A stretch of 28,843 nt of DNA from Pseudomonadota bacterium (GCA_039800165.1 JBDLRH010000030.1:1-28843); one strand, 5' to 3'; counted from the first letter of the stretch, positions 500 through 15,177 are shown. Numbers and translations: made by a program. Notes: generated by a model not told the origin, from the letters alone.

Positions 500-616
500 T
501 TTTTATGGCATATTTATTTTGTATTGCACCCAGTTGATTCGTATTACTGGGATCCAGGTGGCGCTGCAAAGAACTGCGATTAATATCTGAACGCACTATC
601 TTTGAGAGGAGAAGCA

Positions 617-883
617 ATGCCCAAATCCACCACTTGCCTTCTTTTCAACAGAGTAGTCACCGTCGAAGAGGCACTGGACATACGCGACAGCAAGGACAAG
701 GCTGTGCGCAAGCAGAAGTTGAGCATGATCTGCGTGGACTGCCAAAAGCCAGTGCGCCCGCACAAGGCTGGCAAAACCAGCGGCGCACACTTCGAACACC
801 ACCAGCGCAACCCAGCCTGCCCACTCAGCGACAAGATCAAGAACCGCCAAAAGCGCCCAAGCGTGAAGTCCTCTATCCAGTGA
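617..883 (+). CDS. Small (88 aa) basic zinc-ribbon-like protein
   Basis: Shine-Dalgarno GAGAGGAG (604-611) lies 5 nt before ATG 617. The Cys/His pattern is CVDC...GAHFEHHQRNPAC (C-x2-C ... HF-x-H ... C). An intrinsic terminator follows. Confidence 0.6.
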   Translation: MPKSTTCLLFNRVVTVEEALDIRDSKDKAVRKQKLSMICVDCQKPVRPHKAGKTSGAHFEHHQRNPACPLSDKIKNRQKRPSVKSSIQ

Positions 884-945: not shown

Positions 946-964
946 GTGTCGTGTTAAACGACAC
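946..964. repeat. Copy a of a conserved palindrome (GTGTCGT-GTTAA-ACGACAC)
   Basis: Perfect 7-bp stem that overlaps the stop codon of the AAA+ gene. It has the same arms as the copies at 3754-3772 and 4484-4504. Confidence 0.75.
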
Positions 965-1637
965 CTTCCCCTTGGGGTGCTCGTCGCACCTGCAACACGA
1001 TGCTCACCATGGCATCGAGGATTCCTCTGGCTGAACCATGGCATGCGTCAATCACACTGACAAGGGTGCTGTCATCGATGCCACCAACGCCTGCGTCGCT
1101 GAGGATGCGACGACACAGCGGCAGCCAACGCTTGGCTGGCGCTGCATTGAAGGCAATGCAGTGGCAACGATCCAGCACCCCCTGCTCTACTTTGGCGTAG
1201 TGGTTCGTCGTCAGCACGAACACGCAGTTGGGCATGTTCATGGCTGACTTCAACGAAGCCATGGCGTCTTTGGTGAGGTTGTCCACCTCGTCCAAGACAA
1301 AGTAGTGGTACGAGGCAAAGGGAATCACCATCGCCTGCTGCTGAATGCTGCTGACGACGCCACATCCATTGTTGGGAGGTGCCACACGAACATAGCGTGG
1401 CGCAGCAGCGTCACCTGTTCTCGCCTTCTCCATGGCGTCAGGGATCAGTTTGGCAAGGGCACTCTTGCCAGTGCCAGGCACCCCATACAGCAGGATGCCG
1501 CACTTACCCTCACGCATGGGGAAGGGGCGCTCCCCTGACAGCAAGTCGATGACTAACTGCTTGGCAGCGTCGCTTTCGAACACGATGTCGTCCACGCTCT
1601 TGGGCTTGTATTCATTTTCAAAGTCGATTTTTTTCAT
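954..1637 (-). CDS. RFC/clamp-loader-type AAA+ ATPase, short form without a collar domain
   Basis: Motifs present are EYKPKSVDDIVF (RFC box II-like), Walker A GVPGTGKS, Walker B FVLDEVD, sensor-1 LTTN, DRC in the position of the clamp-loader SRC arginine finger, and sensor-2 GSARG. The protein ends about 25 aa after sensor-2. ATG 1637 has AAAGGA 5 nt upstream; ATG 1643 is an alternative start. Confidence 0.85.
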   Translation of the reverse strand: MKKIDFENEYKPKSVDDIVFESDAAKQLVIDLLSGERPFPMREGKCGILLYGVPGTGKSALAKLIPDAMEKARTGDAAAPRYVRVAPPNNGCGVVSSIQQQAMVIPFASYHYFVLDEVDNLTKDAMASLKSAMNMPNCVFVLTTNHYAKVEQGVLDRCHCIAFNAAPAKRWLPLCRRILSDAGVGGIDDSTLVSVIDACHGSARGILDAMVSIVLQVRRAPQGEGVV

Positions 1638-1659
1638 CTTCATCCTTTCAGGAGCAGTG

Positions 1660-1682
1660 GGGTGAGCCACAGGGGCTCACCC
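1660..1682 (-). other. Intercistronic stem-loop between the 290-aa gene and the AAA+ gene
   Basis: GGGTGAGCC (1660-1668) pairs perfectly with GGCTCACCC (1674-1682) around a 5-nt loop. There is no U-tract, so a processing, stability or attenuation role is only a guess. Confidence 0.45.
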
Positions 1683-1690
1683 AGCACCAC

Positions 1691-2563
1691 TTAGGCTGCC
1701 ACCTTCTCCTGCTCCCCCACAGCCTGCTGCGCTGCTGCATCGATTGCAGCCTGCTTGGCATTGCCGTCGTTGGCGGCTTGCTGCTCTTGCTTCTTCGCTT
1801 CAGCGCCAGCCTTCTCGCTAGCGTAGTGGCTCGCCAAGGCAGCAGTCACTGCTGTACCTGAGTTGGTGAAGGTGTGCACAACGACGCTGCCATCGCTTTG
1901 CCAGGTGCCCAGCAGCACCACAGGCTGATCAATATTCCCTGCATCCAAGGCAGCACTGAGCACAGGGCTGGTGACGACACCCAGTCGCTGCTGCCGCAGC
2001 GACTGCTTGCCCATTTCTGCCTTGCTCTTGGGCGTCATCGCGTTAGGGCTCTTCGCCAATCGAATCTCCTCCACGCCCCCATTGCTGCGAATGAAGTCAG
2101 GGATTTGCTCAACAGCGAGTTTCTGGCTCAAGGCTGTTCGCAGCACGATGCCGTAAGCACTGACGCGACGGCGATCAGCACCAAACACGCACTTGACGAT
2201 TTTCACAATCGTGTGCGAACTGGCGCTGAACGTGTAGCCCTTCGACTCGATGTACTCGTTCAAGCCCTCACGCAGGAGTTTTGCGTTGTTGCCGTCGTCG
2301 CTAAGTTGTTGGTACAGCCCATAGCACTTAGCAAGCAGCGCATAGAGTTGCTCGTTGCTGGTGCGATAGGCGTTGTTGAACCAAGCGTCCTTCTCTGCAA
2401 TCAGTTCTTCGATTAGCACGCCTGCTGTGCGCTTGGTAGCACTCAGCACAGCGCCAGATTCATCACGAACTGTGACGTTGGAGGCGCTGAAGGTGTCGTT
2501 TTCCACGACGCCATTAGCAGCAGCAGATTTGAACGAGGGGGCGAAAGTGGTAGTAGTTTCCAT
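1691..2563 (-). CDS. Hypothetical protein (290 aa) with an Ala/Gln/Lys-rich C-terminal tail, first gene of the AAA+ operon
   Basis: ATG at 2563 (METTTTF...) has GGAGA 5 nt upstream; the track's longer start lacks a Shine-Dalgarno sequence. The stop lies 53 nt upstream of the AAA+ start. No family recognised. The tail reads ...AGAEAKKQEQQAANDGNAKQAAIDAAAQQAVGEQEKVAA. Confidence 0.7.
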   Translation of the reverse strand: METTTTFAPSFKSAAANGVVENDTFSASNVTVRDESGAVLSATKRTAGVLIEELIAEKDAWFNNAYRTSNEQLYALLAKCYGLYQQLSDDGNNAKLLREGLNEYIESKGYTFSASSHTIVKIVKCVFGADRRRVSAYGIVLRTALSQKLAVEQIPDFIRSNGGVEEIRLAKSPNAMTPKSKAEMGKQSLRQQRLGVVTSPVLSAALDAGNIDQPVVLLGTWQSDGSVVVHTFTNSGTAVTAALASHYASEKAGAEAKKQEQQAANDGNAKQAAIDAAAQQAVGEQEKVAA

Positions 2564-2772
2564 GATTTCTCCTATTAAGAATGGAAGTGACGACTCGCTT
2601 ACCAAAGCCCAGTCGCCATCGACTTGACGCTGACTTGCACCATTGCCTGCCATTCGTTTCGTCGATGTGTGTATAGTGCTGGATTAGCCAGTAAGTGTGT
2701 TTTCACGCATACAATGTGCTAATTTCAGGAAACCAGCCCCCAAGTTCCAGCCAGGAACATGTGCTCAAGGGC

Positions 2773-3753
2773 ATGCCCAGGCTGCGCTACAGGCGCCCTG
2801 AGGACTCCTTGGCAGACGCCAGAACCAGCCTGCGCCGCTGGTGGTGGGAGTTCCTTCGCCTCAGCAAGGACTACTGGCTGGTGTGCCAGACATCCAAGGG
2901 CAAGCCCATGGCAGCCACTGAAAGCCAAGAACTGCGCAGGATTTATCGCGCCTTTGGCGACATCTATGCCTGCACCTTTGACGAGTGGTGGCTGGACAGG
3001 GGCTACAGGCTGTTCAGCGAAGTGGAGAAGTTCCCCAAAGTCCAAGAAGTGCCCAGGCGCCCCAATGAGCGTGAGCGGCAGGTGCCAGCGCCAGACAAGA
3101 TTTGGGTGGAAGTGCCCCTGAAACTCAGCAAGCGCACGATTCAGAAGCAACTGGGCAAACTGCTGGAGAAGCACGCCAGCGAAAGGCTGGCGAGGCGCAC
3201 AGAACTCACCAGCGCAGAGTTCAAGATCAACTCAGTGCCCTTTGGCACGCACACGCTGCACAAGGTGCATGACTTGCACGCCCTGCACAGGGAACTGATT
3301 GAAAAGCCCAAGTGGCTGAAGAAGCATCAGCCTGACAAACTTGACGGCGCCGCCAAGGCTGACTTGTTCCGCATTGGCAAACTGCTGCACATCAGCATCA
3401 GCAACGAGTCCTTGCTGGTGGAGCCAAGCGAAGCGCACAAGCGTATCAATCGTATGCGTGTTGCTGTGAGCAGAACGCTCAAGCGCAGCCACCAACTCAT
3501 CGCCAATGTGGAGCGTGGAATCTTCCCCAGTTATGCACCAGTGGGCGACACAGAAGTGCGCTTCACGCCACGCCAACTGGCACGCCACAAAGAACTGGAA
3601 AGCCAGTGGTGGGAACTGAACCTGATTTCAGAGTTGAGTGCTGAAAAACTCAACGCCGTCAAGCGCATCCACTACGAAGAGCCAGAGCGCACACGCCAGA
3701 ACGATCTCATGCTGGACAGGCGCGAGCGAGTCGTGATCATTCGCGATGCATGA
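2773..3753 (+). CDS. Hypothetical basic protein (about 327 aa) with the Trp-rich N-terminal motif RRWWWEFLRLSKDYW
   Basis: Long ORF with island-like codon usage, divergent from the AAA+ operon. The start is uncertain: ATG 2773, GTG 2761 (AGGA 4 nt upstream) or the track's GTG 2695. Stop is TGA 3751-3753, immediately followed by palindrome copy b. Confidence 0.7.
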   Translation: MPRLRYRRPEDSLADARTSLRRWWWEFLRLSKDYWLVCQTSKGKPMAATESQELRRIYRAFGDIYACTFDEWWLDRGYRLFSEVEKFPKVQEVPRRPNERERQVPAPDKIWVEVPLKLSKRTIQKQLGKLLEKHASERLARRTELTSAEFKINSVPFGTHTLHKVHDLHALHRELIEKPKWLKKHQPDKLDGAAKADLFRIGKLLHISISNESLLVEPSEAHKRINRMRVAVSRTLKRSHQLIANVERGIFPSYAPVGDTEVRFTPRQLARHKELESQWWELNLISELSAEKLNAVKRIHYEEPERTRQNDLMLDRRERVVIIRDA

Positions 3754-3772
3754 GTGTCGTGCAACACGACAC
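3754..3772. repeat. Copy b of the conserved palindrome (GTGTCGTG-CAA-CACGACAC)
   Basis: Perfect 8-bp stem between the convergent stops of the 327-aa gene (3753) and the recombinase gene (3786). Confidence 0.8.
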
Positions 3773-3785
3773 CCCATGTCGCCCT

Positions 3786-4352
3786 TCAGATCAGTTCCAC
3801 TGCGTTGCGCTTCATGTCGTCGTTGACATCAATGTATTTCTGCGTGACTGCGATGCTGCGATGCCCTGCAAGGCTTGCAAGCACACGCACCCCAATACCC
3901 TTACTCGCCAGCGTGGTGATGAAGGATCTGCGCCCTGAGTGGCTGCTGGCGCCTTCAATGCCTGCCTTGCGATAGAGCCAGAAGAAGTGCTGCGTCAGCA
4001 CATTAGCTGTGAAGGGCTTGCCCCCTGCAGTCATGAACAGGGGTAAGTTGCGATCGCGAACGCTGCGGCTGTCCACGTAGTGCTGCAACTCATCACGCAG
4101 TTTTTGGGGCAAGAACACAGTTCTGGCATAACTGCCCTTGGTTTGTGATGCGTCCAGGCGCACTTCTGCCTTGACTCTGCCGCTGCCATCAACAACATCT
4201 TCCACGCGAAGTGCTGCGATCTCCCCTACTCGCATGCCTGCCCAAAAACTCATCAGGATGATCAGGCGATTTCGCAGCGCATACCTGCGGCTGCTGACGT
4301 AGCGCAGCACAGCGTCTAACTCTGCTGGGGTGAAGGTTTTGGCTTGTCCCAC
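3786..4352 (-). CDS. Short tyrosine recombinase (188-198 aa), catalytic domain only
   Basis: Catalytic residues are all present: Arg I in WAGMRVGE, Lys in QTKGSYARTV, H-x-x-R in HSGRRSF, His in AGHRSI and Tyr in TQKYI. Only about 35-45 aa precede Arg I, so there is no SAM-like core-binding domain. AAGGAG lies 7 nt upstream of GTG 4352; the track start at 4382 is also GTG. Confidence 0.9.
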   Translation of the reverse strand: MGQAKTFTPAELDAVLRYVSSRRYALRNRLIILMSFWAGMRVGEIAALRVEDVVDGSGRVKAEVRLDASQTKGSYARTVFLPQKLRDELQHYVDSRSVRDRNLPLFMTAGGKPFTANVLTQHFFWLYRKAGIEGASSHSGRRSFITTLASKGIGVRVLASLAGHRSIAVTQKYIDVNDDMKRNAVELI

Positions 4353-4483
4353 TTGCTTGCTCCTTGCGTAATAAAAGCGCACAACAAGTGTGTTTTCTTA
4401 GACGCAGAAGAGCAACCGAAAAGACGGCGCTGAAATCTTCAATGAAATCAACGATGCCAAAGAAAACAGCGATTTTCTTTGGT

Positions 4484-4504
4484 GGTGTCGTGTCTCACGA
4501 CACC
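4484..4504. repeat. Copy c of the conserved palindrome (GGTGTCGTG-TCT-CACGACACC)
   Basis: Perfect 9-bp stem. It lies 10 nt downstream of the stop of ORF 4515-4970 and about 130 nt upstream of the recombinase start. The 16 nt to its right match 12 of 16 positions with the flank of copy b. Confidence 0.8.
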
Positions 4505-4970: not shown

Positions 4971-5177
4971 GGAAACCCTCAGTGAATGTCGCCGCGCCTG
5001 CGAGGCGTGGCACATGGCTTCCTAGTGAATGACATCACTGAGTGATCCACCACACATCTCAGTTCTTGGTTTCTTCAATCAAGAAGAAGAAAAGCGCGAT
5101 GAAGATTTGCTCGAAGGCAAATCGAATCGCAGTTCGCGATGAGCGAACTTGAACAACACCTACAAGGGAGACAACAA

Positions 5178-5540
5178 ATGAGTTTTACAAGACAACTATT
5201 CGATCTGACTGCCATGGCTTTGCCCAACATCACAGCCAGAACCTTCAGCAGGTACTGCGGCAAGAGCGAGGGCTACTACGGCAGCATCAGCGCACAGAAC
5301 CTGGACATCTCCACCAACAGCCTGCTGTACCTGTCAGAAGTGCTTGAGCACAAGCGGGCAACCAGCCCCAATCGCTACATCACAGAACTGCAGGACATGA
5401 TCGCCAAGGAAGTGGCACGACGCATGAATACCTTGGCCACAGAGAACTTGGCGGTTCGCAAGATGATCATTCGCGCAGTGGCACATGCCTACGTGCAGCG
5501 CACAGACGAATACTCTGCGCCACCCATCGTGATCGCTTGA
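5178..5540 (+). CDS. Hypothetical protein (120 aa)
   Basis: AAGGGAGA lies 6-7 nt upstream of ATG 5178 (MSFTRQLFDL...). The coding frame is clean. No family confidently recognised. Confidence 0.65.
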   Translation: MSFTRQLFDLTAMALPNITARTFSRYCGKSEGYYGSISAQNLDISTNSLLYLSEVLEHKRATSPNRYITELQDMIAKEVARRMNTLATENLAVRKMIIRAVAHAYVQRTDEYSAPPIVIA

Positions 5541-5869: not shown

Positions 5870-6310
5870 ATGGCTACCCTGGCAAATCTCAAACTCAGCG
5901 CAGCAGTCAAGCCCACGCACATCCCCGCTGTGCAGGTACGTCGCGACAAACTGGCAAAGCGACTGTGGGAACAAGCAGAACTAGCGCGAGCGCAGCAAGC
6001 AGGCACGCAGTTCGCACCCACGCGATTTCGAACCGTCGTGGAACACGCCACTGGTGTGCGCCGTCAAGTCGAGCAGCCCAAGCGAATCAAGCCCTGGTGG
6101 TTCACCACTGACGCAGGCAAGTTGGCGCTGCATGTGCGCTATGGCAGCAAAGTGCTGGAACTAGCCAAGGGCAAGTTCGCAGTGGAAGTTGCCAGCGACA
6201 AGGACTTGGTGCCCACGCTGGATGCCATCAAGGCTGCTGTGTTGGCTGGTGAGTTAGATGCTGCCATCGACACAGCGTCCACAAAACTTCGCGCTGCGTT
6301 TAACAAGTGA
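5870..6310 (+). CDS. Hypothetical protein (146 aa)
   Basis: GGAAAGGA lies upstream of ATG 5870. The frame is clean and contains ...KRIKPWWFTTDAGKLALHVRYGSKVLELAKGKFAVEV.... It is the last gene before the tRNA fragment. Confidence 0.7.
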   Translation: MATLANLKLSAAVKPTHIPAVQVRRDKLAKRLWEQAELARAQQAGTQFAPTRFRTVVEHATGVRRQVEQPKRIKPWWFTTDAGKLALHVRYGSKVLELAKGKFAVEVASDKDLVPTLDAIKAAVLAGELDAAIDTASTKLRAAFNK

Positions 6311-6465: not shown

Positions 6466-6510
6466 ATCATAATCCACAGGTCCGCGGTTCGAATCCGTGA
6501 AGCGCCACCA
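6466..6510 (+). tRNA. Orphan 3' fragment of a tRNA gene (att-site remnant), not a functional tRNA
   Basis: Readable elements are an anticodon-loop-like ATCATAA, stem strand TCCAC, variable loop AGGTC, T-arm CGCGG-TTCGAAT-CCGTG, acceptor 3' strand AAGCGCC, discriminator A and an encoded CCA. The complementary 5' acceptor strand GGCGCTT, the D-arm and the anticodon-stem 5' strand are all absent upstream. Confidence 0.75.
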
Positions 6511-6612: not shown

Positions 6613-7752
6613 ATGATGCAGCTACGCTTCACCTTCGCCGCTTTGACCTTGCTGGCTCTCCCACTAGCCACAAGAGCAACCGAGATGCCGTATGGTTGGA
6701 ACGTTACCAACGGATTCCGAAGCCACGCTCGCGTTGCCTACGTCAGCCCACCTTCCGAGCCCGGTCAGGTAGCGCTGCCAACAGGCACCTCCAGTCCAGA
6801 AGCCAAGCGGCTACTTGACGACCTGTTCAAGCGCAACAACACGAAAGCGCTGCTGGTTGCGCAAGACGGGCAACTTCTCTATGAACGCTATAGCTTTGGC
6901 GTAGGGCGTCGCAACACCCCGCTGGGCTACTCAATGTCGAAGAGTCTTACAGCGCTGGCAGTAGGACATGCAGTTTGCGATGGTCACATCGCCAGCGTCG
7001 ATGACGTGATGAAAAAGTATGTTCCGGCACTCGCAGGCACCGCATGGGGAGAGGCAACGGTACGCGACATATTGAAGATGTCCAGTGGAGCCTACAGAAC
7101 CACTATGCAGTACAACGGCCACAAGTACCGAGAGTTTGAGCAGAGCATCGGTGCGGCTGTAGCCGAAGGGCGAATGAATACCGATTTCCTTGAATTGATG
7201 AAGCAAGCGGACGAAAAGGAGTTTCCTCCAGGCTCCGTCTTCAACTACAACAATTTCGACACGGTCGCGCTCGGCTTACTCGTTCAGTCTGCGTCCGGCA
7301 TGCCTTTTCCCGCGTACTTCGAGCGTTCCGTTTGGAAGTCTGCAGGTGCGGAGACGCGAGGGGCATGGTTCATGACGAACAAGGGCCAGACATCGACGTA
7401 TCAAGGATTTAGCGCATCACCTCATGACTGGATACGTATCGGCATGATGGTCTTGCGCGACCTCCGCGATCAAGACAAATGCATCGGCAAGTTCTTGAAG
7501 GATGCGACGTCAAGTCAGGCATCGTCTTGGGGTCCGGCATCCTCGTACGGATATCAAATCTGGGTACGCTGCGCATCCCAGACTGACTTTTGCTTCGTTG
7601 GCTTCGGTGGGCAGTACCTGCTTTTCAATGTTGCGACAAACACAGTTCTCTACCACCACGCTACAACGTTCTCATCTATCGTGTGGGGAACTCCTCGCGT
7701 GATGGACGAGTTGATCCCGCATCTCTCCAGCAGCACGAAGCCACGGCAATAG
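6613..7752 (+). CDS. Secreted serine hydrolase of the beta-lactamase / penicillin-binding-protein fold family
   Basis: It has an N-terminal signal peptide (MMQLRFTFAALTLLALPLATRA) and an S-x-x-K active-site motif (YSMSKSLTA) at the usual position. At 379 aa the length is typical of the family. Confidence 0.8.
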   Translation: MMQLRFTFAALTLLALPLATRATEMPYGWNVTNGFRSHARVAYVSPPSEPGQVALPTGTSSPEAKRLLDDLFKRNNTKALLVAQDGQLLYERYSFGVGRRNTPLGYSMSKSLTALAVGHAVCDGHIASVDDVMKKYVPALAGTAWGEATVRDILKMSSGAYRTTMQYNGHKYREFEQSIGAAVAEGRMNTDFLELMKQADEKEFPPGSVFNYNNFDTVALGLLVQSASGMPFPAYFERSVWKSAGAETRGAWFMTNKGQTSTYQGFSASPHDWIRIGMMVLRDLRDQDKCIGKFLKDATSSQASSWGPASSYGYQIWVRCASQTDFCFVGFGGQYLLFNVATNTVLYHHATTFSSIVWGTPRVMDELIPHLSSSTKPRQ

Positions 7753-7933
7753 CTCCAGGCGGAAGTGTGACTGGGTTAGCACGGCATCCGCACAGCGATC
7801 AAACCAATCGCCTGCGCGAAGCGCACGCCACCTGTCGGGCTGTTGCAGCAGAGGATTGGGATACTGCTTACGGTGGTCAAGCCGTCATCGGCTGAACTGT
7901 AGGTTTATCAGCGCCACAGTACGCCAATTGCGT

Positions 7934-8680
7934 TCATGCCAGTGCGTGCTTCTCGCCGAGCGCAGCGATGTACTCCGGCTTGCGCTCGGCAATCGTCTGC
8001 AGAAACTGCAGCGGCGCGGTGATGTGCACACGCATGTGCTCGCTGGCGGCCACGGCGTTGCCCTGGATGATGGCATCGACGATCAGGCGATGCTGGTCGA
8101 CGGCGATGCGGTGACTGCCCACCGTTTCGATGGCGAGATGGCGCACGCGGTTCATGCCGGTACGCGCCAGCCGGAGCGCTGGCCAGGCATGCGGATGCCC
8201 GGCCAGCCGCAAGATCTCGCGGTGCAGTTCCTCGTCGGCCTGCAGGTGGGTGGTGTAGTCGCCGGAGCGCGAAGCACGGGCCTGGCGCTGCATCAGCTTG
8301 AGCAGTGCCTTGCGCTGCGCCAGCGGGGCGGCGGCGGCCAGTTGCGCCGCGCGGCATTCGATTACCTCGCGCACGAAGATGGCATCGCGAATGCGAACGG
8401 GGTCGAGCAGCGCAACATAGGTGCCGCGCTGGGGTACCACCTGCACCAGGTGCTCGGCAGCCAGCTGCCGCAGCGCGTCGCGCACCGGCGCGCGGCTCAC
8501 CCCCAGCTCCTGCGACAGCGCTTGCTCTGACAGCGCCACCCCGGGCAGCAGGCGGCACTCCAGGATGGCATTGCGAATCAGGTCGTAGGCGCTGCGGGTG
8601 AACTGCCCGCGCGCGGCGCCATCGTCTGCCTCGGCGCTGACCAGGCCAAGCGATGGAAGCTGGGGGCGGGTTCGTGCCAT
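7934..8680 (-). CDS. GntR-family transcriptional regulator (FadR/FCD-type C-terminal domain)
   Basis: The winged-helix region reads ...LSEQALSQELGVSRAPVRDALRQLAAEHLVQVVPQRGTYV, followed by a helical C-terminal domain. It is divergent from the Bug/dehydratase operon. No clear Shine-Dalgarno precedes ATG 8680, so the start is slightly uncertain. Confidence 0.9.
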   Translation of the reverse strand: MARTRPQLPSLGLVSAEADDGAARGQFTRSAYDLIRNAILECRLLPGVALSEQALSQELGVSRAPVRDALRQLAAEHLVQVVPQRGTYVALLDPVRIRDAIFVREVIECRAAQLAAAAPLAQRKALLKLMQRQARASRSGDYTTHLQADEELHREILRLAGHPHAWPALRLARTGMNRVRHLAIETVGSHRIAVDQHRLIVDAIIQGNAVAASEHMRVHITAPLQFLQTIAERKPEYIAALGEKHALA

Positions 8681-8693
8681 GGTGCGTGGGGGC

Positions 8694-8725
8694 CCGCCCT
8701 CTCAGGGCATTCCCTGAGAGGGCGG
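8694..8725. repeat. Perfect 14-bp-stem GC-rich hairpin in the GntR/Bug divergent intergenic region
   Basis: CCGCCCTCTCAGGG-CATT-CCCTGAGAGGGCGG, located 13 nt upstream of the GntR start codon. Confidence 0.7.
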
Positions 8726-8737
8726 CATTTACTGAAA

Positions 8738-8761
8738 TACTAGCACTTACTAGAATACTAG
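8738..8761. promoter_or_regulatory. AT-rich block with three TACTAG repeats, candidate operator/promoter
   Basis: TACTAG occurs at 8738, 8748 and 8756 within aaaTACTAGcactTACTAGaaTACTAGataaag. This is the only AT-rich stretch between the divergent GntR and Bug genes. Confidence 0.4.
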
Positions 8762-8828
8762 ATAAAGGTCCCGCAACACGCCCTGCAAACCATCCGGCCC
8801 GATTCGCCGAACTAAAGAGGAGACAGCC

Positions 8829-9806
8829 ATGACCCAACGACGCCAACTGCTGCTGGCCGCCCCCGCCTGGGCCGCCATGCTGGGCGCCCCGCGCGCCTTC
8901 GCGCAGGCCGACTATCCCAGCAAGCCGATCAAGATCATCGTGCCCTTCCCGCCCGGCGGCACCAGCGACGTGATGGGCCGCATGGTGGCCGAGCCGCTGT
9001 CGAAGGTGCTGGGGCAACCGGTGGTGGTGGAGAACATCGGCGGCGCCGGCGGCGTGATCGGCACCGAGCGTGGCGCCAAGGCGCCGGCTGATGGCTACAC
9101 CATCATCCAGACCGGCGTAGGCCAGAACGCGGTGGCGCACGGGCTCGACCCGAACCTCAAGTACAACTCGGTCACCGACTTCATCCACGTGAGCCAGGTG
9201 CACCACGGGCCCAACGTGCTGGTGGTCAACTCGCAGCGGCCGTTCCGCACGGTCAAGGAGCTGGTGGCCTTTGCCAAGGCCAACCCGGGCAAGCTGGATT
9301 ACGGCTTCACGCACGCGGCGTCGGGCCACATGGCGATGGAGCTGTTCAAGCAGACCACCGGCATCTTCATGACCGGCATTCCGTACCGCGGCGGCGGGCC
9401 GATGATGGGCGCGATCCTGGCCAACGAGATTCCGCTGATGTTCATCAACCAGGACGTGGCGCTGCAGCATGTGCGCTCGGGCCGGCTGCGCCCGCTGGCG
9501 GTGACCAGCCTGCAGCGCAATGCGCTGTACCCCGACGTACCGACGATTGCCGAGTCGGGCTACCCCGGCTTCGAGGCGCTGTCGTGGTCGGGCCTGTCGC
9601 TGCCCAAGGGCACGCCCGCGCCGGTGGTGGCCAGGCTCGAGGCCGCCATCCGCGAGGTGATGACGTCGCCCGCCATCAAGCAGCGCATGGACTCGCAGGG
9701 CTTCGTGATCCCGCCGCAAGGGTCGCGGCCGTATGCCGAGTTCATCGGCAAGGAGCTCGAGCGCTGGTCGCAGGTGATCAAGACCGCCGGCATCAAGGCC
9801 GAATGA
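8829..9806 (+). CDS. Bug/TctC-family (tripartite tricarboxylate transporter) periplasmic substrate-binding protein
   Basis: Shine-Dalgarno AGAGGAGA upstream, a signal peptide ending AFAQA, and the family hallmark KPIKIIVPFPPGGTSDVMGR...VVVENIGGAGG. Confidence 0.92.
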   Translation: MTQRRQLLLAAPAWAAMLGAPRAFAQADYPSKPIKIIVPFPPGGTSDVMGRMVAEPLSKVLGQPVVVENIGGAGGVIGTERGAKAPADGYTIIQTGVGQNAVAHGLDPNLKYNSVTDFIHVSQVHHGPNVLVVNSQRPFRTVKELVAFAKANPGKLDYGFTHAASGHMAMELFKQTTGIFMTGIPYRGGGPMMGAILANEIPLMFINQDVALQHVRSGRLRPLAVTSLQRNALYPDVPTIAESGYPGFEALSWSGLSLPKGTPAPVVARLEAAIREVMTSPAIKQRMDSQGFVIPPQGSRPYAEFIGKELERWSQVIKTAGIKAE

Positions 9807-11587: not shown

Positions 11588-12319
11588 ATGCCCCTGCCTA
11601 CCGCCACCCGCAACAAGCTCAAGGCCGTCAGCACCGCCACGCTGTGCACCGCACTCTTCAAGCGCGGCCTGCGCAACCAGTTCATCCAGGACGTGCGGCC
11701 GGTCAACCCCGACATCACCCGCGACGCGCCCAACATGGTGGGCGAGGCCTTCACGCTGCGCTACATCCCGGCGCGCGAAGACCTCAACCCGATCACCGTG
11801 TTCCAGGACCGCGGTCACCCGCAACGCGTGGCGGTGGAGCAGTGCCCGCCGGGTGCGGTGATGGTGATCGACAGCCGCAAGGACGCGCGTGCCGCATCGG
11901 CCGGCGGCATCCTGGTCAGCCGCCTGATGGTGCGCGGCTGCGCCGGCGTGGTGACCGACGGCGGCTTTCGCGATGCGCCCGAGATCGCGGCCCTGCCCTT
12001 TCCTGCGTACCACCATCGGCCCAGCGCGCCCACCAACCTGACGCTGCACCAGGCCATGGACATCAACGTGCCGATCGGCTGCGGCGATGTGGCGGTGTTC
12101 CCCGGCGACGTGGTGGTGGGCGACCGCGAGGGCGTCATCGTCATCCCGGCGCATCTGGCCGATGAGGTGGCCGAAGAGGCCACGCAGATGACGGTGTTCG
12201 AGGACTTCGTGCTCGACCAGGTGCAAAACGCCGGCCGCAGCATCCTGGGCCTGTACCCGCCCACCGATCCGCAGACGCTCGACCAGTTCGCCGCCTGGCG
12301 CCGGCAGCGCGGACGCTGA
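11588..12319 (+). CDS. RraA-fold protein, HMG/CHA-aldolase-like (243 aa)
   Basis: ATG 11588 is in frame with the track ORF, whose upstream part overlaps the dehydratase gene. The sequence ...GGILVSRLMVRGCAGVVTDGGFRD...GDVVVGDREGVIVIP is typical of the RraA / 4-hydroxy-4-methyl-2-oxoglutarate aldolase family. Confidence 0.85.
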   Translation: MPLPTATRNKLKAVSTATLCTALFKRGLRNQFIQDVRPVNPDITRDAPNMVGEAFTLRYIPAREDLNPITVFQDRGHPQRVAVEQCPPGAVMVIDSRKDARAASAGGILVSRLMVRGCAGVVTDGGFRDAPEIAALPFPAYHHRPSAPTNLTLHQAMDINVPIGCGDVAVFPGDVVVGDREGVIVIPAHLADEVAEEATQMTVFEDFVLDQVQNAGRSILGLYPPTDPQTLDQFAAWRRQRGR

Positions 12320-12321
12320 GC

Positions 12322-14283
12322 TCAGCCAGACACCGCGCGGCGCCCCGGCGCTGCAGGGCTGCCCTCGGCCGCTTGCGGTGGCTGGTCGTGCAGCGGCAGC
12401 GTGATCTCGAAGGTCACGCCCTGGCCGGGCTGGTTGCGCATCACGATGCTGCCGCCCAGCACGTCTTCGACCACGCGACGCGCGGAAAACAGCCCCAGGC
12501 CGGAACCGCCCGAGGCTCGTTGCGTTGTGAAGAAGGGTGTGAACGCGCGCGCCGCTGCCTCGGCGTTCATGCCGTTGCCGTTGTCTGCCACACGGATGAC
12601 CACCTGACCGGCAACAACGCTGGCCTCGATGCGCAGTTCACGGCTATCGCGTCCCTCAAAGGCATGCAGCGTGGCGTTGACCACCAGGTTGGTGATCACC
12701 TGCCCCAGCGAACCGGGTTCGGTGTAAATCGACAAGTCGCTCGGGCAGGTGACGTGCACCGCACAGCGGGCACGGTGCGTGATCGGCGACAGCGTGACCA
12801 GCAAGGAATCAAACAGCGGCTGCAGCCCGACCTTGCGCCATTCCACCCGCGACACGTTCGCGGTGGTGGCCTTCAGGCTCTTGACCAGCTCGCCCGCCTT
12901 GGCGAGGTTGCTGGCCACCAGCTCCGAGGTGCGATGCAACCTGCGCAGGCGTTCCAGCGACACCGACACGTCGTCAGGCGCTGCACCGCCCGCTGCAGGT
13001 GCTTCGATCAGCGGCAGCAAGGTGTCGCGGACCTTGGTCGAACCGGTCAGCGCGATGCCCACCGGGGTGTTGAGGTCGTGCGCAATGCCTGCGATGGCCA
13101 GGCTGACCGACTGCAGCTTGTTGGATTCCTGCAGGTCGCCTGCCAGGCGCCGCTGGTCTTCGCGCGCCTGCCAGATTTCCTGGATGTCCACCAGGCACAG
13201 CGCCAGCCTGGCGCCTTCGTGCGGGTTGTCGCGCAGCGCAAAGGCCAGGCAGCGCGTCCAGCGGGTGTGGCCGGGGCCACAGCGCACGCCTGCCTCCCAT
13301 TCCAGCGACCGGGCACTGCCGGCAGCAGCACGCAGCTGCCGGCCCAGTACACCCAGGGCATCCGCCGGCTCCAGACAGGCCACGGGCTGCCCGATGACGC
13401 GATCCGCCGCATGCCCGAACACCTCGCGCAGTGCATCGGTGACATCGACGATCCGGAAGTCGGGCGTGTCGGCATCCAGCACCACCACCGCGAACGGCGC
13501 GCGGTTGAGCAGGTCGGTCTTGGTCTGCAGCGCGTGCACCGATCGGTCGAGCTCCAGCGTGCGCTGCGTGAGGTCGTGGGTGCGCTGCTGTACCTCGCGC
13601 TCCAATCCGTCGTTGAGCGCCCGCAGCTCATCGACCTTGCGCTGGATTTCGCCGCTCATCGCTGAAAACGCCTGCACCAGCAAGCCCACTTCGTCGGTCG
13701 ATGGCGCGGGCAGCGCTGGCGCGTACTGCCCTTCACGGATGCTGCGGCTTGCGTCTACCAGGTGCTGCAGACGGCGTGTGACCGTACCGCTGAGCACCCA
13801 CAGCAGCGCGCTGAAGAACACCAGCGCCAGCGAACCGACACCGATGACATATCGCGCAATGCGTGCCTGGGCCTGATCCAGATCGGCACGCGACAGCGTG
13901 AAGGTGACCGCGCCGATGGCCTGGCCGGCCAGCGCCAGATCGGCACGGAAGTCCGCCAGCGCGCCCGCTGCCGCACCCGGGGTTGCCGCGGATGGCCTGC
14001 GCGCTGCAGCCACCAGCCGGCCTGCCGAGTCGTAAGCCTGCAGCTGCTGTAGCGCCGGGTCTTCCAGCGTCTCTTCAAGGATGGCCTGCACCGACGCGTA
14101 GTCGCGCTGCAGCAATGGCACTGACAGCGCCGCATTGAGCAGCGGCCGCAGTTGCAGCACCCGCGCCTGTTGCTGCGAATCAAAGTGATCGCGCAGGATG
14201 CCCAGCGTGTACCAGGTGACGAGACCCAGCGACAGCGCCAGCAGCAGCGTTCCGCTCAGGGCCAGCTTCAGGCGCAGGCTCAT
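12322..14283 (-). CDS. Membrane sensor histidine kinase (periplasmic domain, HAMP, PAS, HisKA, HATPase_c), no receiver domain
   Basis: It has two hydrophobic segments flanking a domain of about 130 aa. Further elements are a HAMP region (...TVTRRLQHLVDASRSIREGQY...), a PAS region (LLNRAPFAVVVLDADT...), H-box IAGIAHDLNTPVG, an N-box and the G-boxes VADNGNGM / GGSGLGL. Confidence 0.92.
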   Translation of the reverse strand: MSLRLKLALSGTLLLALSLGLVTWYTLGILRDHFDSQQQARVLQLRPLLNAALSVPLLQRDYASVQAILEETLEDPALQQLQAYDSAGRLVAAARRPSAATPGAAAGALADFRADLALAGQAIGAVTFTLSRADLDQAQARIARYVIGVGSLALVFFSALLWVLSGTVTRRLQHLVDASRSIREGQYAPALPAPSTDEVGLLVQAFSAMSGEIQRKVDELRALNDGLEREVQQRTHDLTQRTLELDRSVHALQTKTDLLNRAPFAVVVLDADTPDFRIVDVTDALREVFGHAADRVIGQPVACLEPADALGVLGRQLRAAAGSARSLEWEAGVRCGPGHTRWTRCLAFALRDNPHEGARLALCLVDIQEIWQAREDQRRLAGDLQESNKLQSVSLAIAGIAHDLNTPVGIALTGSTKVRDTLLPLIEAPAAGGAAPDDVSVSLERLRRLHRTSELVASNLAKAGELVKSLKATTANVSRVEWRKVGLQPLFDSLLVTLSPITHRARCAVHVTCPSDLSIYTEPGSLGQVITNLVVNATLHAFEGRDSRELRIEASVVAGQVVIRVADNGNGMNAEAAARAFTPFFTTQRASGGSGLGLFSARRVVEDVLGGSIVMRNQPGQGVTFEITLPLHDQPPQAAEGSPAAPGRRAVSG

Positions 14284-14301
14284 GCGCGGCCTCGGCGCCC
14301 G

Positions 14302-15177
14302 TCAGTTGTCGCCGAACAGGCTGCGCCGGGTGACGTCTACAAAGGCGTCCAGCGCAGCGAGTTCGCGGTCATCAACCCGACGCACATTGGTAAAGCCCGA
14401 CAACCCGAAGAAGCGCCAGCCCGCCTCGGCAGCAGGCAGCGCCAACATCGCGTCGCCCAGCTTTTGCCGGTCTGCCGCCGTCATGGTGGGGTGCGTCATC
14501 ACCAGGAAACCTGGCACCGTGGCGATCTCGCTGACCACGCGCAGTGCCTGGCGCAGCGCGTCGGGCTTGGCACGGAATTCACCCATGCTCATGATGGCGA
14601 ACGGGGCCTCACCGTTGAGGATGACTGCGCCCAGGCTGTCGTCGTTCGGCGTTCTCACCACCTGGAAGTCGCGGCCCTGCTGCAGCCCCTGGCCACCCAG
14701 CCAGCGCAAACCCACCAGCGCCACCAGCGACTGCGGATTGCCCAGCGCCAGCGACTTGCCGCGCAGCTGCGCGACCGCCGCTTCACGGTTGCTGGCGGCC
14801 GTGACAAGCAGCGCCGGAATGCCGGGTTCGTATTGGGCGATCGGCGTCCAGCGCGAGTCCACCTGCGCCATGCGGCCCAGATTGGGGGCGGTAACGATCA
14901 TGTCGTACTTGCCCTCACGCGTGGCTTGCGCAAACGCGCGGAAGTCGTTGGCGGTGACCACCTCCACCGGCCGCCCCAGCGTTTGCTGCAGGTATTCGCG
15001 CATGGGCTGGTAGTGCGTGAGGAGCACACGTGCGCTGATGTTGGGCAAGACCCCCAGCGTGAGTGGGCCCGCCGGGGCCTGCGCCCAGGCCGCACCGGCA
15101 CCCAGGGTGGCGGCCAGGCCCAGCGCACCCCCCAGCACAACATCGCGGCGGCGCTTCAAAAACGAGGGAAAAGACAT
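14302..15177 (-). CDS. PhnD-like (phosphonate-type ABC) periplasmic binding protein, co-transcribed with the kinase
   Basis: ATG 15177 (MSFPSFLKRRRDVVLGGALGLAATLGAGAAWAQA) gives a signal peptide. The mature part LTLGVLPNISARVLLTHYQPMREYL... matches PhnD-type binding proteins. The stop is 18 nt upstream of the kinase start. The track's 653-aa version extends antisense over the next gene. Confidence 0.85.
   Translation of the reverse strand: MSFPSFLKRRRDVVLGGALGLAATLGAGAAWAQAPAGPLTLGVLPNISARVLLTHYQPMREYLQQTLGRPVEVVTANDFRAFAQATREGKYDMIVTAPNLGRMAQVDSRWTPIAQYEPGIPALLVTAASNREAAVAQLRGKSLALGNPQSLVALVGLRWLGGQGLQQGRDFQVVRTPNDDSLGAVILNGEAPFAIMSMGEFRAKPDALRQALRVVSEIATVPGFLVMTHPTMTAADRQKLGDAMLALPAAEAGWRFFGLSGFTNVRRVDDRELAALDAFVDVTRRSLFGDN

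Follow-up and report, generated by a model that had tools for sequence, protein, structure and literature searches.

Gene content of the locus

The window, which is the whole stretch of DNA that was analysed (28,843 nt), carries part of an 8.7-kb island inserted in a tRNA-Met gene. The right end of the island is a 42-nt copy of the tRNA-Met 3' end (attR, 6469–6510, plus strand). The tRNA-Met gene and a 487-aa integrase lie just left of the window and are seen in the identical contig L051. The GC content of the island is 43–60%, compared with 67% in the host. The integrase beside the tRNA, the tRNA repeat at the far end and the foreign base composition identify a tRNA-integrating island, as an earlier note on this DNA had proposed in placing the block on a mobile element. 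The tRNA is the only known RNA gene in the island.

The block contains three genes. The ATPase gene (954–1637, minus strand) is the second cistron behind the gene for a 290-aa protein, here called the partner (1691–2563, minus strand), which has an AGGAGA ribosome-binding site. The third gene (2716–3753, plus strand) is divergent from this pair. The promoters presumably lie in the stretch that separates the partner gene from the third gene (2564–2715), where no consensus sigma-70 promoter was found. The small recombinase gene (3786–4382, minus strand) follows, and is kept next to the trio in 36 loci. Judged by this layout, the trio belongs to a conserved four-gene unit that includes the recombinase. 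The membership of the recombinase had been missed in the earlier note.

Further island genes in the window encode small proteins. A DUF7830 (CoiA_N-like) protein is encoded at 602–883 (plus strand; Pfam 4.6e-08) and is followed by a canonical bidirectional terminator (911–940). A DUF6626-like protein (5139–5540, plus strand; Pfam 0.0019, below the curated cut-off) is a backbone gene in the closest relatives, with homologues in islands L005, L006 and L009. The DUF6641 protein (5870–6310, plus strand; Pfam 1.1e-13) is a backbone gene kept in about 25 related islands. Among the larger open reading frames of the window, none was found to encode a clamp, polymerase, helicase or primase, in line with the earlier note, and no clamp or polymerase gene was found in the annotated related loci.

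The clamp-loader-type ATPase

The 227-aa ATPase is a member of the clamp-loader clade of AAA+ proteins and is collar-less. Its open reading frame is a 100% match to a deposited MAG protein, and translation could alternatively start at an ATG two codons earlier (1643). The matches to PHROG, NCBIfam and PDB entries cover domains I and II only. Residues 10–222 align to positions 4–208 of the 314 in phrog_168 (6.6e-21), and residues 6–209 align to positions 8–204 of the RFC small subunit 2chg (1.6e-12). The NCBIfam RFC small subunit model matches at 4e-14, with 52 bits against an equivalog cut-off of 303. Both domains align with those of clamp loaders and carry the RFC boxes, the two Walker motifs and both sensors. 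The motif-by-motif likeness to RFC small subunits and T4 gp44 seen by the earlier note is confirmed. In 28 relatives, Walker A K58, Walker B D116/E117, sensor-1 T143/N145, R157 and sensor-2 R204 are invariant. R157 belongs to the arginine-finger motif, in which DRC replaces SRC. These residues agree with the view that the enzyme looks catalytically intact.

The C-terminus of the ATPase lies 23 aa beyond the GSAR of sensor 2, close to the 25 or so first estimated. The collar domain (domain III) is absent, and the alignments end at about position 204–208 of profiles or chains that are 314–322 long. The relatives are also short. All but two of the 120 listed are 221–262 aa, mostly 221–245 aa, and the two exceptions are 338 aa. 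The known members of the clamp-loader clade of AAA+ proteins are pentamers held together by a collar, and their task is to load sliding clamps. Without the domain III collar, the known pentamer cannot form.

Two other assignments were rejected. DnaC-like PHROGs match the ATPase at 3e-3 to 7e-3 over the P-loop only, compared with 6.6e-21 for the clamp-loader profile, which speaks against the DnaC/IstB helicase-loader clade. The stretch ahead of the RFC box is about 10 aa and has no helicase- or transposase-binding domain. RarA/MgsA proteins, the JGI name for some of the relatives, total about 440 aa, and behind their AAA+ module they have the C-terminal tetramerisation domain of MgsA. At 227 aa, and with no such domain in the Pfam scan, the ATPase does not fit this layout. 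The protein is an orphan, collar-less and apparently active AAA+ ATPase of the clamp-loader type.

The partner and third proteins

The partner is predicted to begin with a disordered N-terminus, followed by a helical core and a small beta hairpin, and to end in a long C-terminal helix rich in Ala, Gln and Lys. It has no match among Pfam, NCBIfam, PHROG or PADLOC families, and its AF2 model (pLDDT 70) has no Foldseek match in PDB or BFVD below E = 0.07. This is congruent with the earlier statement that the 290-aa protein could not be placed. Its family is large (1086 clusters at 50% identity). Among loci with room, the partner is directly upstream of the ATPase in 44 of the 44 sampled from the partner side, and the two are adjacent in 27 of the 27 sampled from the ATPase side. 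The earlier note had asked for conserved co-occurrence of the two proteins, and co-occurrence in this survey is strong. From these loci, the 290-aa protein is taken to be the obligate partner of the ATPase.

A GC hairpin with a 9-bp stem and a 5-nt loop (1660–1682, minus strand) lies between the two cistrons, directly 3' of the partner stop codon. The perfect stem that the earlier note reported is present, and its structure is conserved. A GC-rich hairpin occurs at the equivalent position in most of the 44 loci examined, where the sequences differ and a T-run often follows. The hairpin is probably an attenuator that would put the partner above the ATPase in abundance. A conserved hairpin or terminator at this position fits a stoichiometric binder and a catalytic ATPase.

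The third protein is about 345 aa, basic, Trp-rich and predicted to be all-helical. Its start is probably the GTG at 2716 (345 aa), because the relatives conserve EHxLKG upstream of the first ATG; this falls within the 327–352 aa given in the earlier note, and the divergent layout is as described there. The protein is present in most related islands, and its gene is always divergent from the partner gene. All 188 relatives found are unnamed. No Pfam, NCBIfam, PHROG or PADLOC family was found for it, and its AF2 model (pLDDT 78, pTM 0.73) matches nothing in PDB below E = 0.07 by Foldseek. A resemblance of the RRWWWEFLRL motif to a DUF6499/FseA-type regulator domain was considered and dropped, as it has no Pfam support (33 members, E ≤ 10). 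Profile searches of PDB sequences gave nothing for the partner or the third protein, and the two are unrelated to one another when compared. Neither matches a known replication, partition or transfer family; a match of that kind is what the earlier note had named as contrary to its reading.

The small recombinase is a 198-aa, Xer-like tyrosine recombinase (Pfam Phage_integrase, 4.8e-24) that contains the catalytic domain only. It aligns to residues 99–273 of 4a8e, a 292-aa archaeal XerA-like protein, and the N-terminal core-binding domain is missing.

The island palindrome

Three perfect copies of the palindrome GTGTCGTnnnnnACGACAC are present in the window. The first (946–964) overlaps the ATPase stop codon, the second (3754–3772) lies where the third gene and the small recombinase gene converge, and the third (4485–4503) is upstream of the small recombinase gene. 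A degenerate copy with one mismatch (2493–2511) lies in the 5' part of the partner gene and encodes VVENDT. In total, GTGTCGTnnnnnACGACAC has four matches in the window against 0.09 expected. The earlier note had described the copies at 946–964 and 3754–3772 as a bracket around the 2.8-kb block; both are perfect, but the palindrome is not merely a bracket, since it recurs across the island and throughout the family. Its role as a module junction site and the copy embedded in the partner gene had been missed.

In related islands the palindromes are 17–21 bp, near-perfect and share the core TGTCGTKTWAMACGACA, with a sequence that is kept across genera. An island has three to nine copies, most of which lie at module junctions and at the 3' ends of genes. 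A copy lies just past the ATPase gene in about 19 related loci and at the junction of the third gene and the recombinase gene in about 17. In TGTCGT-type islands, a palindrome lies within the partner 5' coding region. Across 14 relatives, the arms of this intragenic copy (GTCGT/ACGAC) are invariant and keep one reading frame, whereas the residues encoded at the centre differ, which argues for constraint at the DNA level. A different palindrome is found in the L002 island, with two copies just upstream of the partner gene. The nearest-neighbour concordance between palindrome variant and protein is 39/47 for the partner, 14/29 for the integrase and 12/25 for DUF6641. The co-variation margins among the four module proteins are small, and too small to decide which protein binds the palindrome.

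The palindromes are not intrinsic terminators. They are without T-runs, their sequence is kept across genera and copies occur inside coding regions; the canonical terminator at 911–940 directly beside one copy also counts against this assignment. They are not genome-wide REP or uptake sequences, as none is present in about 31 kb of flanking chromosome (window and L051).

In four pairwise comparisons of islands, the breakpoints of insertions, replacements and inversions appear to coincide with palindromes. L048 contains a 1.09-kb insertion that is bounded by two palindromes and absent from L042. L024 and L048 share the same site, integrase and DUF6641, and the interior is replaced from a palindrome onward. 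Further palindrome-junction cases are L014 with L058 and L070 with L071. Three gene orders are related to one another by inversion of a three-gene or four-gene block exactly between the three palindrome positions of the window. In L026 and L022 the sites are asymmetric, and the copies on the two sides of the trio point in opposite directions. Within 15 bp of palindromes, alignment end-points show an enrichment of about 10-fold, a figure uncontrolled for intergenic position. No recent event between near-identical sequences was seen at palindromes in the compared islands. As read from these alignments, the islands are built from modules joined at one conserved palindrome.

Distribution of the island family

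Related islands occur in Limnohabitans, Polynucleobacter, Methylophilaceae and others. Common to them, with not all in every island, are the pair, a large integrase, a recombinase of about 200 aa without a DNA-binding domain, the third protein and DUF6641. The integrases are divergent and tRNA-specific, and the islands are found at tRNA-Met, Phe, Arg, Lys and Thr. The minimal island (L002, 5.2 kb) contains an integrase, the partner, the ATPase and a few small open reading frames; islands of this type have the pair and their own palindromes and no small recombinase. The pair is in every related island examined, including L002, and is therefore backbone and not cargo.

A plasmid or phage origin was rejected. 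The block has no nucleotide match in PLSDB or GenBank phage records, and the ATPase finds only dnaX or gp44 genes there, at 23–27% identity. Relatives of the partner are absent from plasmids, 50,697 phage records and IMG/VR, an absence that is weak evidence. A phage satellite of the PICI, P4 or PLE type is not supported, with no capsid or terminase domain found. No circular (excised) contigs were found. L004 was considered as a circle and rejected, as its 17-nt terminal overlap lies within the att repeat and is explicable as an assembly break.

In the literature searched, including that on Limnohabitans and Polynucleobacter islands, no mention was found of the island family, of clamp-loader-like island ATPases or of DUF6641. 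Text searches found no AAA, ATPase, clamp or palindrome in the tycheposon preprint, and no AAA or palindrome in the Methylophilaceae island paper.

Interpretation of the pair

We infer that the partner and the ATPase are a two-component DNA machine and the conserved core of a tRNA-integrating island family. The preferred but tentative reading is that they may form an initiator-plus-loader module for replication or maintenance of the island. The partner would be made in excess and would bind the palindrome. It would recruit the ATPase, which would oligomerise on DNA in an ATP-dependent manner, and the complex would start replication of the excised circle, or otherwise maintain it, with parts of the host replisome. 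The logic would be like that of lambda O/P or DnaA/DnaC, with a loader from the clamp-loader clade; the initiator site would be inside its own gene and the AAA+ loader gene would be next. Sequence features that appear to support this reading are the identity and integrity of the ATPase, with its trans-acting arginine finger intact, and the strict adjacency and backbone status of the pair. The palindrome in or just upstream of the partner gene, with a variant that tracks the partner best, would also support it, as would the conserved attenuator and the lack of a defence-system match. Against it, known initiators, helicases, primases and clamps have no match among the proteins here, neither an AT-rich nor an iteron-type origin was identified and no circular or extrachromosomal contig was recovered. 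Known helicase loaders come from another AAA+ clade and have a helicase-binding domain, which is missing from this ATPase. Three to nine palindromes, mostly at gene 3' ends and junctions, are unusual for an origin and fit recombination sites better.

A close rival we regard as possible but somewhat less likely. The pair would be an ATP-driven regulator of site-specific recombination, with the palindromes as crossover sites. Because the recombinase has no core-binding domain, the partner or the third protein would supply site recognition, and the AAA+ protein would assemble on DNA beside it and license or direct strand exchange, much as TnsC, MuB and IstB act on transposases or FtsK acts on XerD. 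The catalytic-domain-only recombinase beside the trio in 36 loci favours this reading, as do the module junctions that coincide with palindromes at the base-pair level in the four comparisons, the block inversions, the oppositely oriented asymmetric copies in L026 and L022 and the enrichment of alignment end-points. However, L002-type islands have the pair and palindromes without the small recombinase, the enrichment is uncontrolled for intergenic position, and a crossover at the intragenic copy would disrupt the partner gene. The shared 17–21-bp palindromes could also be the sole homology for ordinary recombination between divergent islands. To our knowledge, no tyrosine recombinase uses an AAA+ partner. 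A more elaborate and rather improbable version is an undescribed cassette-shuffling platform, in which the truncated tyrosine recombinase would act at 17–21-bp palindromes around every module, and the collar-less RFC-like ATPase and its partner would recognise and activate these sites. By analogy with clamp loaders, which read single-strand/double-strand junctions, the sites might possibly be read as hairpin or cruciform junctions.

The remaining readings are less probable still. In B. subtilis, parS is located within spo0J, and RK2 has KorB operators at many places along its length; the perfect palindromes scattered over the island, one of them inside the binder gene, resemble this layout. 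On this basis the partner could be a centromere-binding protein like ParB or KorB and the ATPase a motor or loader for positioning or compacting the excised element; the long C-terminal helix of the partner and the binder excess implied by the attenuator are consistent with such a partition or DNA-organising system. We consider it unlikely. Only the layout of scattered palindromes is like that of ParABS-type systems. Neither an NTPase of the ParA, ParM or TubZ type nor a ParB, HTH or RHH signature was detected, the binder-first gene order is atypical of partition operons and an integrated 5–9-kb island has little need for partition. That the pair is defence or exclusion cargo, a nucleic-acid-sensing AAA+ protein with an effector partner, is very unlikely. 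tRNA-gene islands often carry defence genes and the partner proteins are without known family, but the PADLOC 2023 models give only weak, P-loop-level matches for the ATPase and none for the partner, third protein or recombinase, and no component has a match over most of its length. The searches revealed no effector domain of the nuclease, protease, TIR, SIR2 or membrane kind. The pair goes with a cis-acting DNA site, and its universal presence and fixed position, even in the minimal island, are backbone behaviour. The earlier note had offered replication or maintenance and defence as guesses; backbone status and the lack of a PADLOC match beyond the P-loop favour the former as the putative function. 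The least probable reading, which we hardly credit, is that the ATPase is a true clamp-loader subunit that either becomes part of the host complex or serves the island by loading the host beta clamp. It matches RFC small subunits, DnaX and gp44 best and keeps an SRC-type arginine finger, but the collar that holds all known pentamers is absent across the family, no island has a clamp or polymerase gene and identity is only 23–27%.

Gene-exchange mechanisms in Limnohabitans, Polynucleobacter and Methylophilaceae are poorly understood. The islands are common in these taxa, which gives them ecological reach, and their palindrome-bounded modular layout suggests a possible gene-shuffling mechanism. 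In the literature, partly in PMC10872708, all three taxa count as abundant members of freshwater plankton. A collar-less clamp-loader-clade family locked to a partner of more than 1000 clusters appears to serve a mobile element and not the replisome. The pair would stand either for a new kind of module for replication initiation or for the first case of tyrosine recombination regulated by an AAA+ protein. If the cassette platform were real, no earlier tyrosine-recombinase system would have been under AAA+ control, and the clamp-loader fold would have a novel use.

Comparison with known systems

The clamp loaders (archaeal and eukaryotic RFC, DnaX/HolB and T4 gp44) share the RFC box, Walker A and B, sensor 1, arginine finger and sensor 2 with the ATPase. 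Unlike it, they have a collar and are associated with a clamp and polymerase, whereas the ATPase is always paired with an unrelated 290-aa protein. Lambda O/P, SPP1 G38P/G39P and DnaA/DnaC resemble the pair in the order of binder then ATPase, in the mobile-element setting and in a cis site in or beside the binder gene. They differ in that the partner has no sequence or fold similarity to initiators and the ATPase is not of the DnaC or initiator clade.

TnsC, MuB, IstB and TniB are functionally comparable, as small, collar-less AAA+ proteins of mobile elements. They form polymers on DNA and link a recombinase with a site-binding protein. Their partners are DDE transposases, in contrast to the tyrosine recombinases here, and the sequence match is limited to the P-loop. 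Tycheposons and other tRNA-targeting islands of streamlined planktonic bacteria are also comparable. The tycheposon preprint names a primase/helicase as the hallmark of tycheposons, in which they differ.

The islands are not integrons. With the integron-integrase model, the score of 46.7 bits falls short of the cut-off (265), and the islands have their own truncated recombinase in place of an IntI-type integrase and attI. The sites are 17–21-bp palindromes, compared with 57–141-bp attC in integrons and 28-bp XerC/XerD sites in the pdif modules of Acinetobacter plasmids. With these two systems the islands nevertheless share modules of one or two genes, bounded by short conserved repeats that look like recombination sites. 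The modules can face either way and move from one element to another, here by putative recombination.

The ATPase

The AAA+ ATPase (954-1637, minus strand, 227 aa) is identical to a deposited MAG protein and matches clamp-loader families only. The match to PHROG 168 ("clamp loader of DNA polymerase") has an E-value of 6.6e-21 and aligns residues 10-222 to profile positions 4-208 of 314. The NCBIfam matches are the RFC small subunit (4e-14) and the DnaX N-terminal region (1e-12), both far under their equivalog cut-offs. The best PDB match of the ATPase family profile is the archaeal RFC small subunit 2chg (1.6e-12, residues 6-209 to 8-204), followed by human and yeast RFC2-5 and T4 gp44. These matches agree with the earlier note, which had aligned the protein with RFC small subunits and T4 gp44.

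The Walker A lysine, the Walker B DE, the sensor-1 T/N, R157 (part of a DRC motif of the SRC type) and the sensor-2 arginine are invariant in 28 relatives, and the catalytic motifs, previously described as intact, appear so across the family. The C-terminus lies 23 residues past sensor 2. The 120 relatives among the matches listed are 221-262 aa long (most are 221-245 aa), except for two of 338 aa. Because nearly all relatives are equally short, the absence of a collar, also reported previously, is a family trait and not a truncation. The protein is established as an RFC-type ATPase without a collar, and its motifs predict that it is active and oligomerises through an arginine finger.

Conserved gene order

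The partner, a 290-aa protein with a good ribosome-binding site (1691-2563, minus strand), is encoded directly upstream of the ATPase. A collection clustered at 90% contains 898 ATPase relatives and 869 partner relatives, and many contig sizes are common to both lists. An exhaustive profile search (E <= 1e-3) yields 1086 partner clusters at 50% identity, none of which carries a functional name or Pfam domain. The partner profile, run against a genome set with one representative per species, gave 46 loci. These are mostly from freshwater Betaproteobacteria (Limnohabitans, Polynucleobacter, Methylophilaceae, Rhodoferax, Hydrogenophaga and Sapientia), with a few from Methylophaga, Aestuariivirga and one Arenimonas MAG. 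Candidate island-bearing isolates are Limnohabitans sp. DCL3 and MMS-10A-178, Polynucleobacter sphagniphilus MWH-Weng1-1, P. aenigmaticus, P. meluiroseus, Sapientia aquatica SA-152 and Hydrogenophaga defluvii CCUG 53903.

Co-occurrence of the pair, which the earlier note had proposed to survey, was counted from HMM scans of six-frame ORFs. In each of the 44 loci where the sequence was long enough, the ATPase is directly 3' of the partner, and the partner is directly upstream of the ATPase in 27 of 27 metagenomic loci sampled from the ATPase side. In all loci with room for it except three, the gene for a basic third protein is transcribed away from the partner gene. A small recombinase of approximately 200 aa adjoins in 36 loci; 34 loci encode a large integrase of one family (~417 aa), and approximately 25 encode DUF6641. 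The integrases of related islands adjoin tRNA-Met, Phe, Arg, Lys or Thr genes. A minimal island, in locus L002 (5.2 kb), is flanked by a 39-nt tRNA-Phe repeat and contains the pair, an integrase and a few small ORFs, and nothing more. Since the pair is present throughout and is retained in this island, no other part of the backbone is as constant. The ATPase and partner are therefore established as the backbone of tRNA-integrating islands, with the partner obligate.

Several loci have unusual arrangements. Compared with L002 8555-13787, contig L004 (5211 bp) consists of the 5194-bp minimal island plus a 17-nt terminal overlap that falls within the att repeat of 39 nt. The contig may represent the circular, excised form of the island, or the assembly may simply have broken at this repeat. 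In L019, L071 and L016/L039 (one Polynucleobacter meluiroseus contig), two oppositely oriented copies of the trio (ATPase, partner and third protein) lie within ~12 kb around an integrase and a tRNA gene, an arrangement that suggests tandem or nested islands of one family. In the metagenomic island L053, a WYL/WCX-domain gene (7912-8874) follows the ATPase where others have the integrase.

The host island

A JGI contig identical to the window (offset +7240) extends it leftward. The added sequence includes a tRNA-Met gene and, after it, the gene for a divergent tyrosine integrase of 487 aa whose N-terminal domain is SAM-like. The 3' end of the tRNA is repeated over 42 nt at 6469-6510. The 8.7-kb interval has a GC content of 43-60%, compared to 67% in the host. 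On the basis of the tRNA gene, integrase, repeat and deviating GC, the block sits in a small tRNA-integrated island, as the earlier note had proposed in calling it mobile. Outside the island, the window consists of ordinary chromosomal sequence, with genes for histidine kinases, ABC transporters, cyanase and a TPP enzyme. The island also encodes a 93-aa cysteine-rich DUF7830/CoiA_N-like protein (602-883) and, in a stretch of ~43% GC, a 152-aa ORF with no family match (41-499); counterparts of these two genes were not found in the related islands examined. Just beyond attR, a beta-lactamase-fold gene (6613-7752; 13853-14992 in the JGI contig) has ~55% GC compared to 67%, which suggests an older insertion or island remnant beside the present island.

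Partner, third protein and small recombinase

The third protein probably starts at GTG 2716 (345 aa), since an EHxLKG motif upstream of the first ATG is kept in relatives; its divergence from the pair is as first described (327-352 aa). Neither it nor the partner has a match in Pfam, NCBIfam, PHROGs or PADLOC, and the proteins are unrelated to one another. In its AF2 model (pLDDT 70), the partner is disordered at the N-terminus and helical in the core (47-207), and it also has a beta hairpin and a long helix at the C-terminus. The model of the third protein is all-helical (pLDDT 78, pTM 0.73). The structure search suggested previously was run on both models and found no structural neighbours. 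The small recombinase (3786-4382, minus strand) aligns to residues 99-273 of an archaeal XerA-like protein, and has the catalytic domain but no N-terminal core-binding domain.

The 9-bp hairpin reported between the two cistrons is present at 1660-1682. Most loci have a GC-rich hairpin immediately 3' of the partner stop codon, with unrelated sequences and often a T-run. This implies attenuation, which would yield more partner than ATPase.

An island-wide palindrome

The palindrome GTGTCGTnnnnnACGACAC was previously described as bracketing the 2.8-kb block. Perfect copies are indeed found at 946-964 and 3754-3772, but it is not confined to this bracket: a third perfect copy is at 4485-4503, a one-mismatch copy is at 2493-2511, and it recurs across related islands. 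The window contains four copies versus 0.09 expected by chance, and none occur in the ~31 kb of chromosome flanking the island. The consensus across related islands is RG-TGTCGTKTWAMACGACA-CY, with variants in loop length and arms, and 151 strict copies occur in 732 kb of loci with a median spacing of 1.5 kb. The distance to an ORF 3' end is at most 40 nt for 41% of copies, compared to 14% of random positions. As in the window, recurrent sites are after the ATPase gene, between the third-protein and recombinase genes, and upstream of the recombinase gene. The palindromes are preferentially located at module ends. In the window, the ATPase stop codon (TAA, 954-956) lies in the loop of the first copy and its last two codons (Val-Val) form an arm, while the third-gene stop codon abuts the copy at 3754-3772. 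A role as terminators is ruled out, as T-runs are absent and a canonical bidirectional intrinsic terminator (AAAAAGCCAGCG-cgaa-CGCTGGCTTTTTT, 911-940, between the DUF7830 and ATPase genes) stands beside one copy.

Most loci have one copy inside the 5' part of the partner gene. The arms GTCGT/ACGAC are in a constant reading frame there and the encoded residues differ (VVQND, VVKND, VVLND, VVSHD, VGQND). The variable, disordered N-terminus contains a lone conserved peptide because these arms are kept, a pattern that indicates constraint on DNA and not on protein. Palindrome class co-varies most with the partner (39/47) and least with the integrase (14/29) and DUF6641 (12/25). Values for the ATPase, recombinase and third protein are intermediate; the margins among these three and the partner are small. 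The analyses establish that the palindrome is a cis site linked to the partner gene. L002 has its own distinct 21-bp imperfect palindrome, AGCGTAAA-n5-TTGACGCT, at 8807-8827, 8938-8958 and 12211-12231. One copy follows the integrase gene, and the other two stand head-to-head ahead of the partner gene.

Modular junctions

Three gene orders are found, which differ by inversion of a four-gene or three-gene block relative to the integrase/DUF6641 flanks, and the inversions fall between palindrome positions. A 1.09-kb segment between two palindromes in L048 (12867-13976; also L024 15448-16557) is missing from the otherwise collinear L042, which matches its flanks. It encodes a 341-aa tyrosine recombinase and looks like a self-contained mobile cassette. 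L024 and L048 share a chromosomal site, an integrase (90% identical) and DUF6641 (93%). Past the palindrome that follows the integrase, the two islands diverge, with unrelated interiors in a different order. Base-level comparison places two more junctions at palindromes (L014 versus L058, L070 versus L071). Alignment end-points are ~10-fold enriched near palindromes, with intergenic position not controlled for. L026 and L022 have asymmetric sites (TGTCGT...CCGACA) in either orientation, and oppositely oriented copies flank the trio, as in pdif modules. From these comparisons, we infer that recombination may take place at the palindromes.

Possible roles of the pair

The partner would read the palindrome and bring the ATPase onto DNA. 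Downstream of this, the pair may replicate or maintain the excised island as initiator and loader, respectively, a reading that we favour tentatively and by analogy. This reading is based chiefly on L002, which has no second recombinase and keeps the pair together with its own palindromes by the partner gene. The gene logic is like that of initiator-then-loader modules, in which the initiator gene comes first and contains the site. Control of site-specific recombination at the palindromes by the pair is possible, if somewhat less probable; module junctions coincide with palindromes, and the small recombinase has no DNA-binding domain of its own.

A partition-like organisation is unlikely. Defence cargo is more unlikely again; the defence check proposed earlier, run with PADLOC, gives no match for the partner or third protein. 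A genuine clamp-loader role is the most improbable of these readings. The ATPase is a member of the clamp-loader clade, yet it has neither the defining collar nor the association with a clamp, and for this reason it is not filed as a clamp loader.

Comparison with known systems

The islands, the ATPase-partner pair and the palindrome are not described in the literature searched. The nearest published descriptions are tycheposons and a tRNA-Met island of Methylophilaceae. Text searches gave no mention of AAA, ATPase, clamp or palindrome in the tycheposon preprint, and none of AAA or palindrome in the Methylophilaceae paper. We rate the pair as a genomic-island backbone module that uses a known ATPase fold in an architecture that is new; the chance that the system is more unusual than this is real. 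The island layout is similar to that of pdif modules and integron cassettes, but the sites and proteins differ. As a system, its closest analogues are initiator/loader modules and AAA+ transposition regulators, to which the likeness is functional only.
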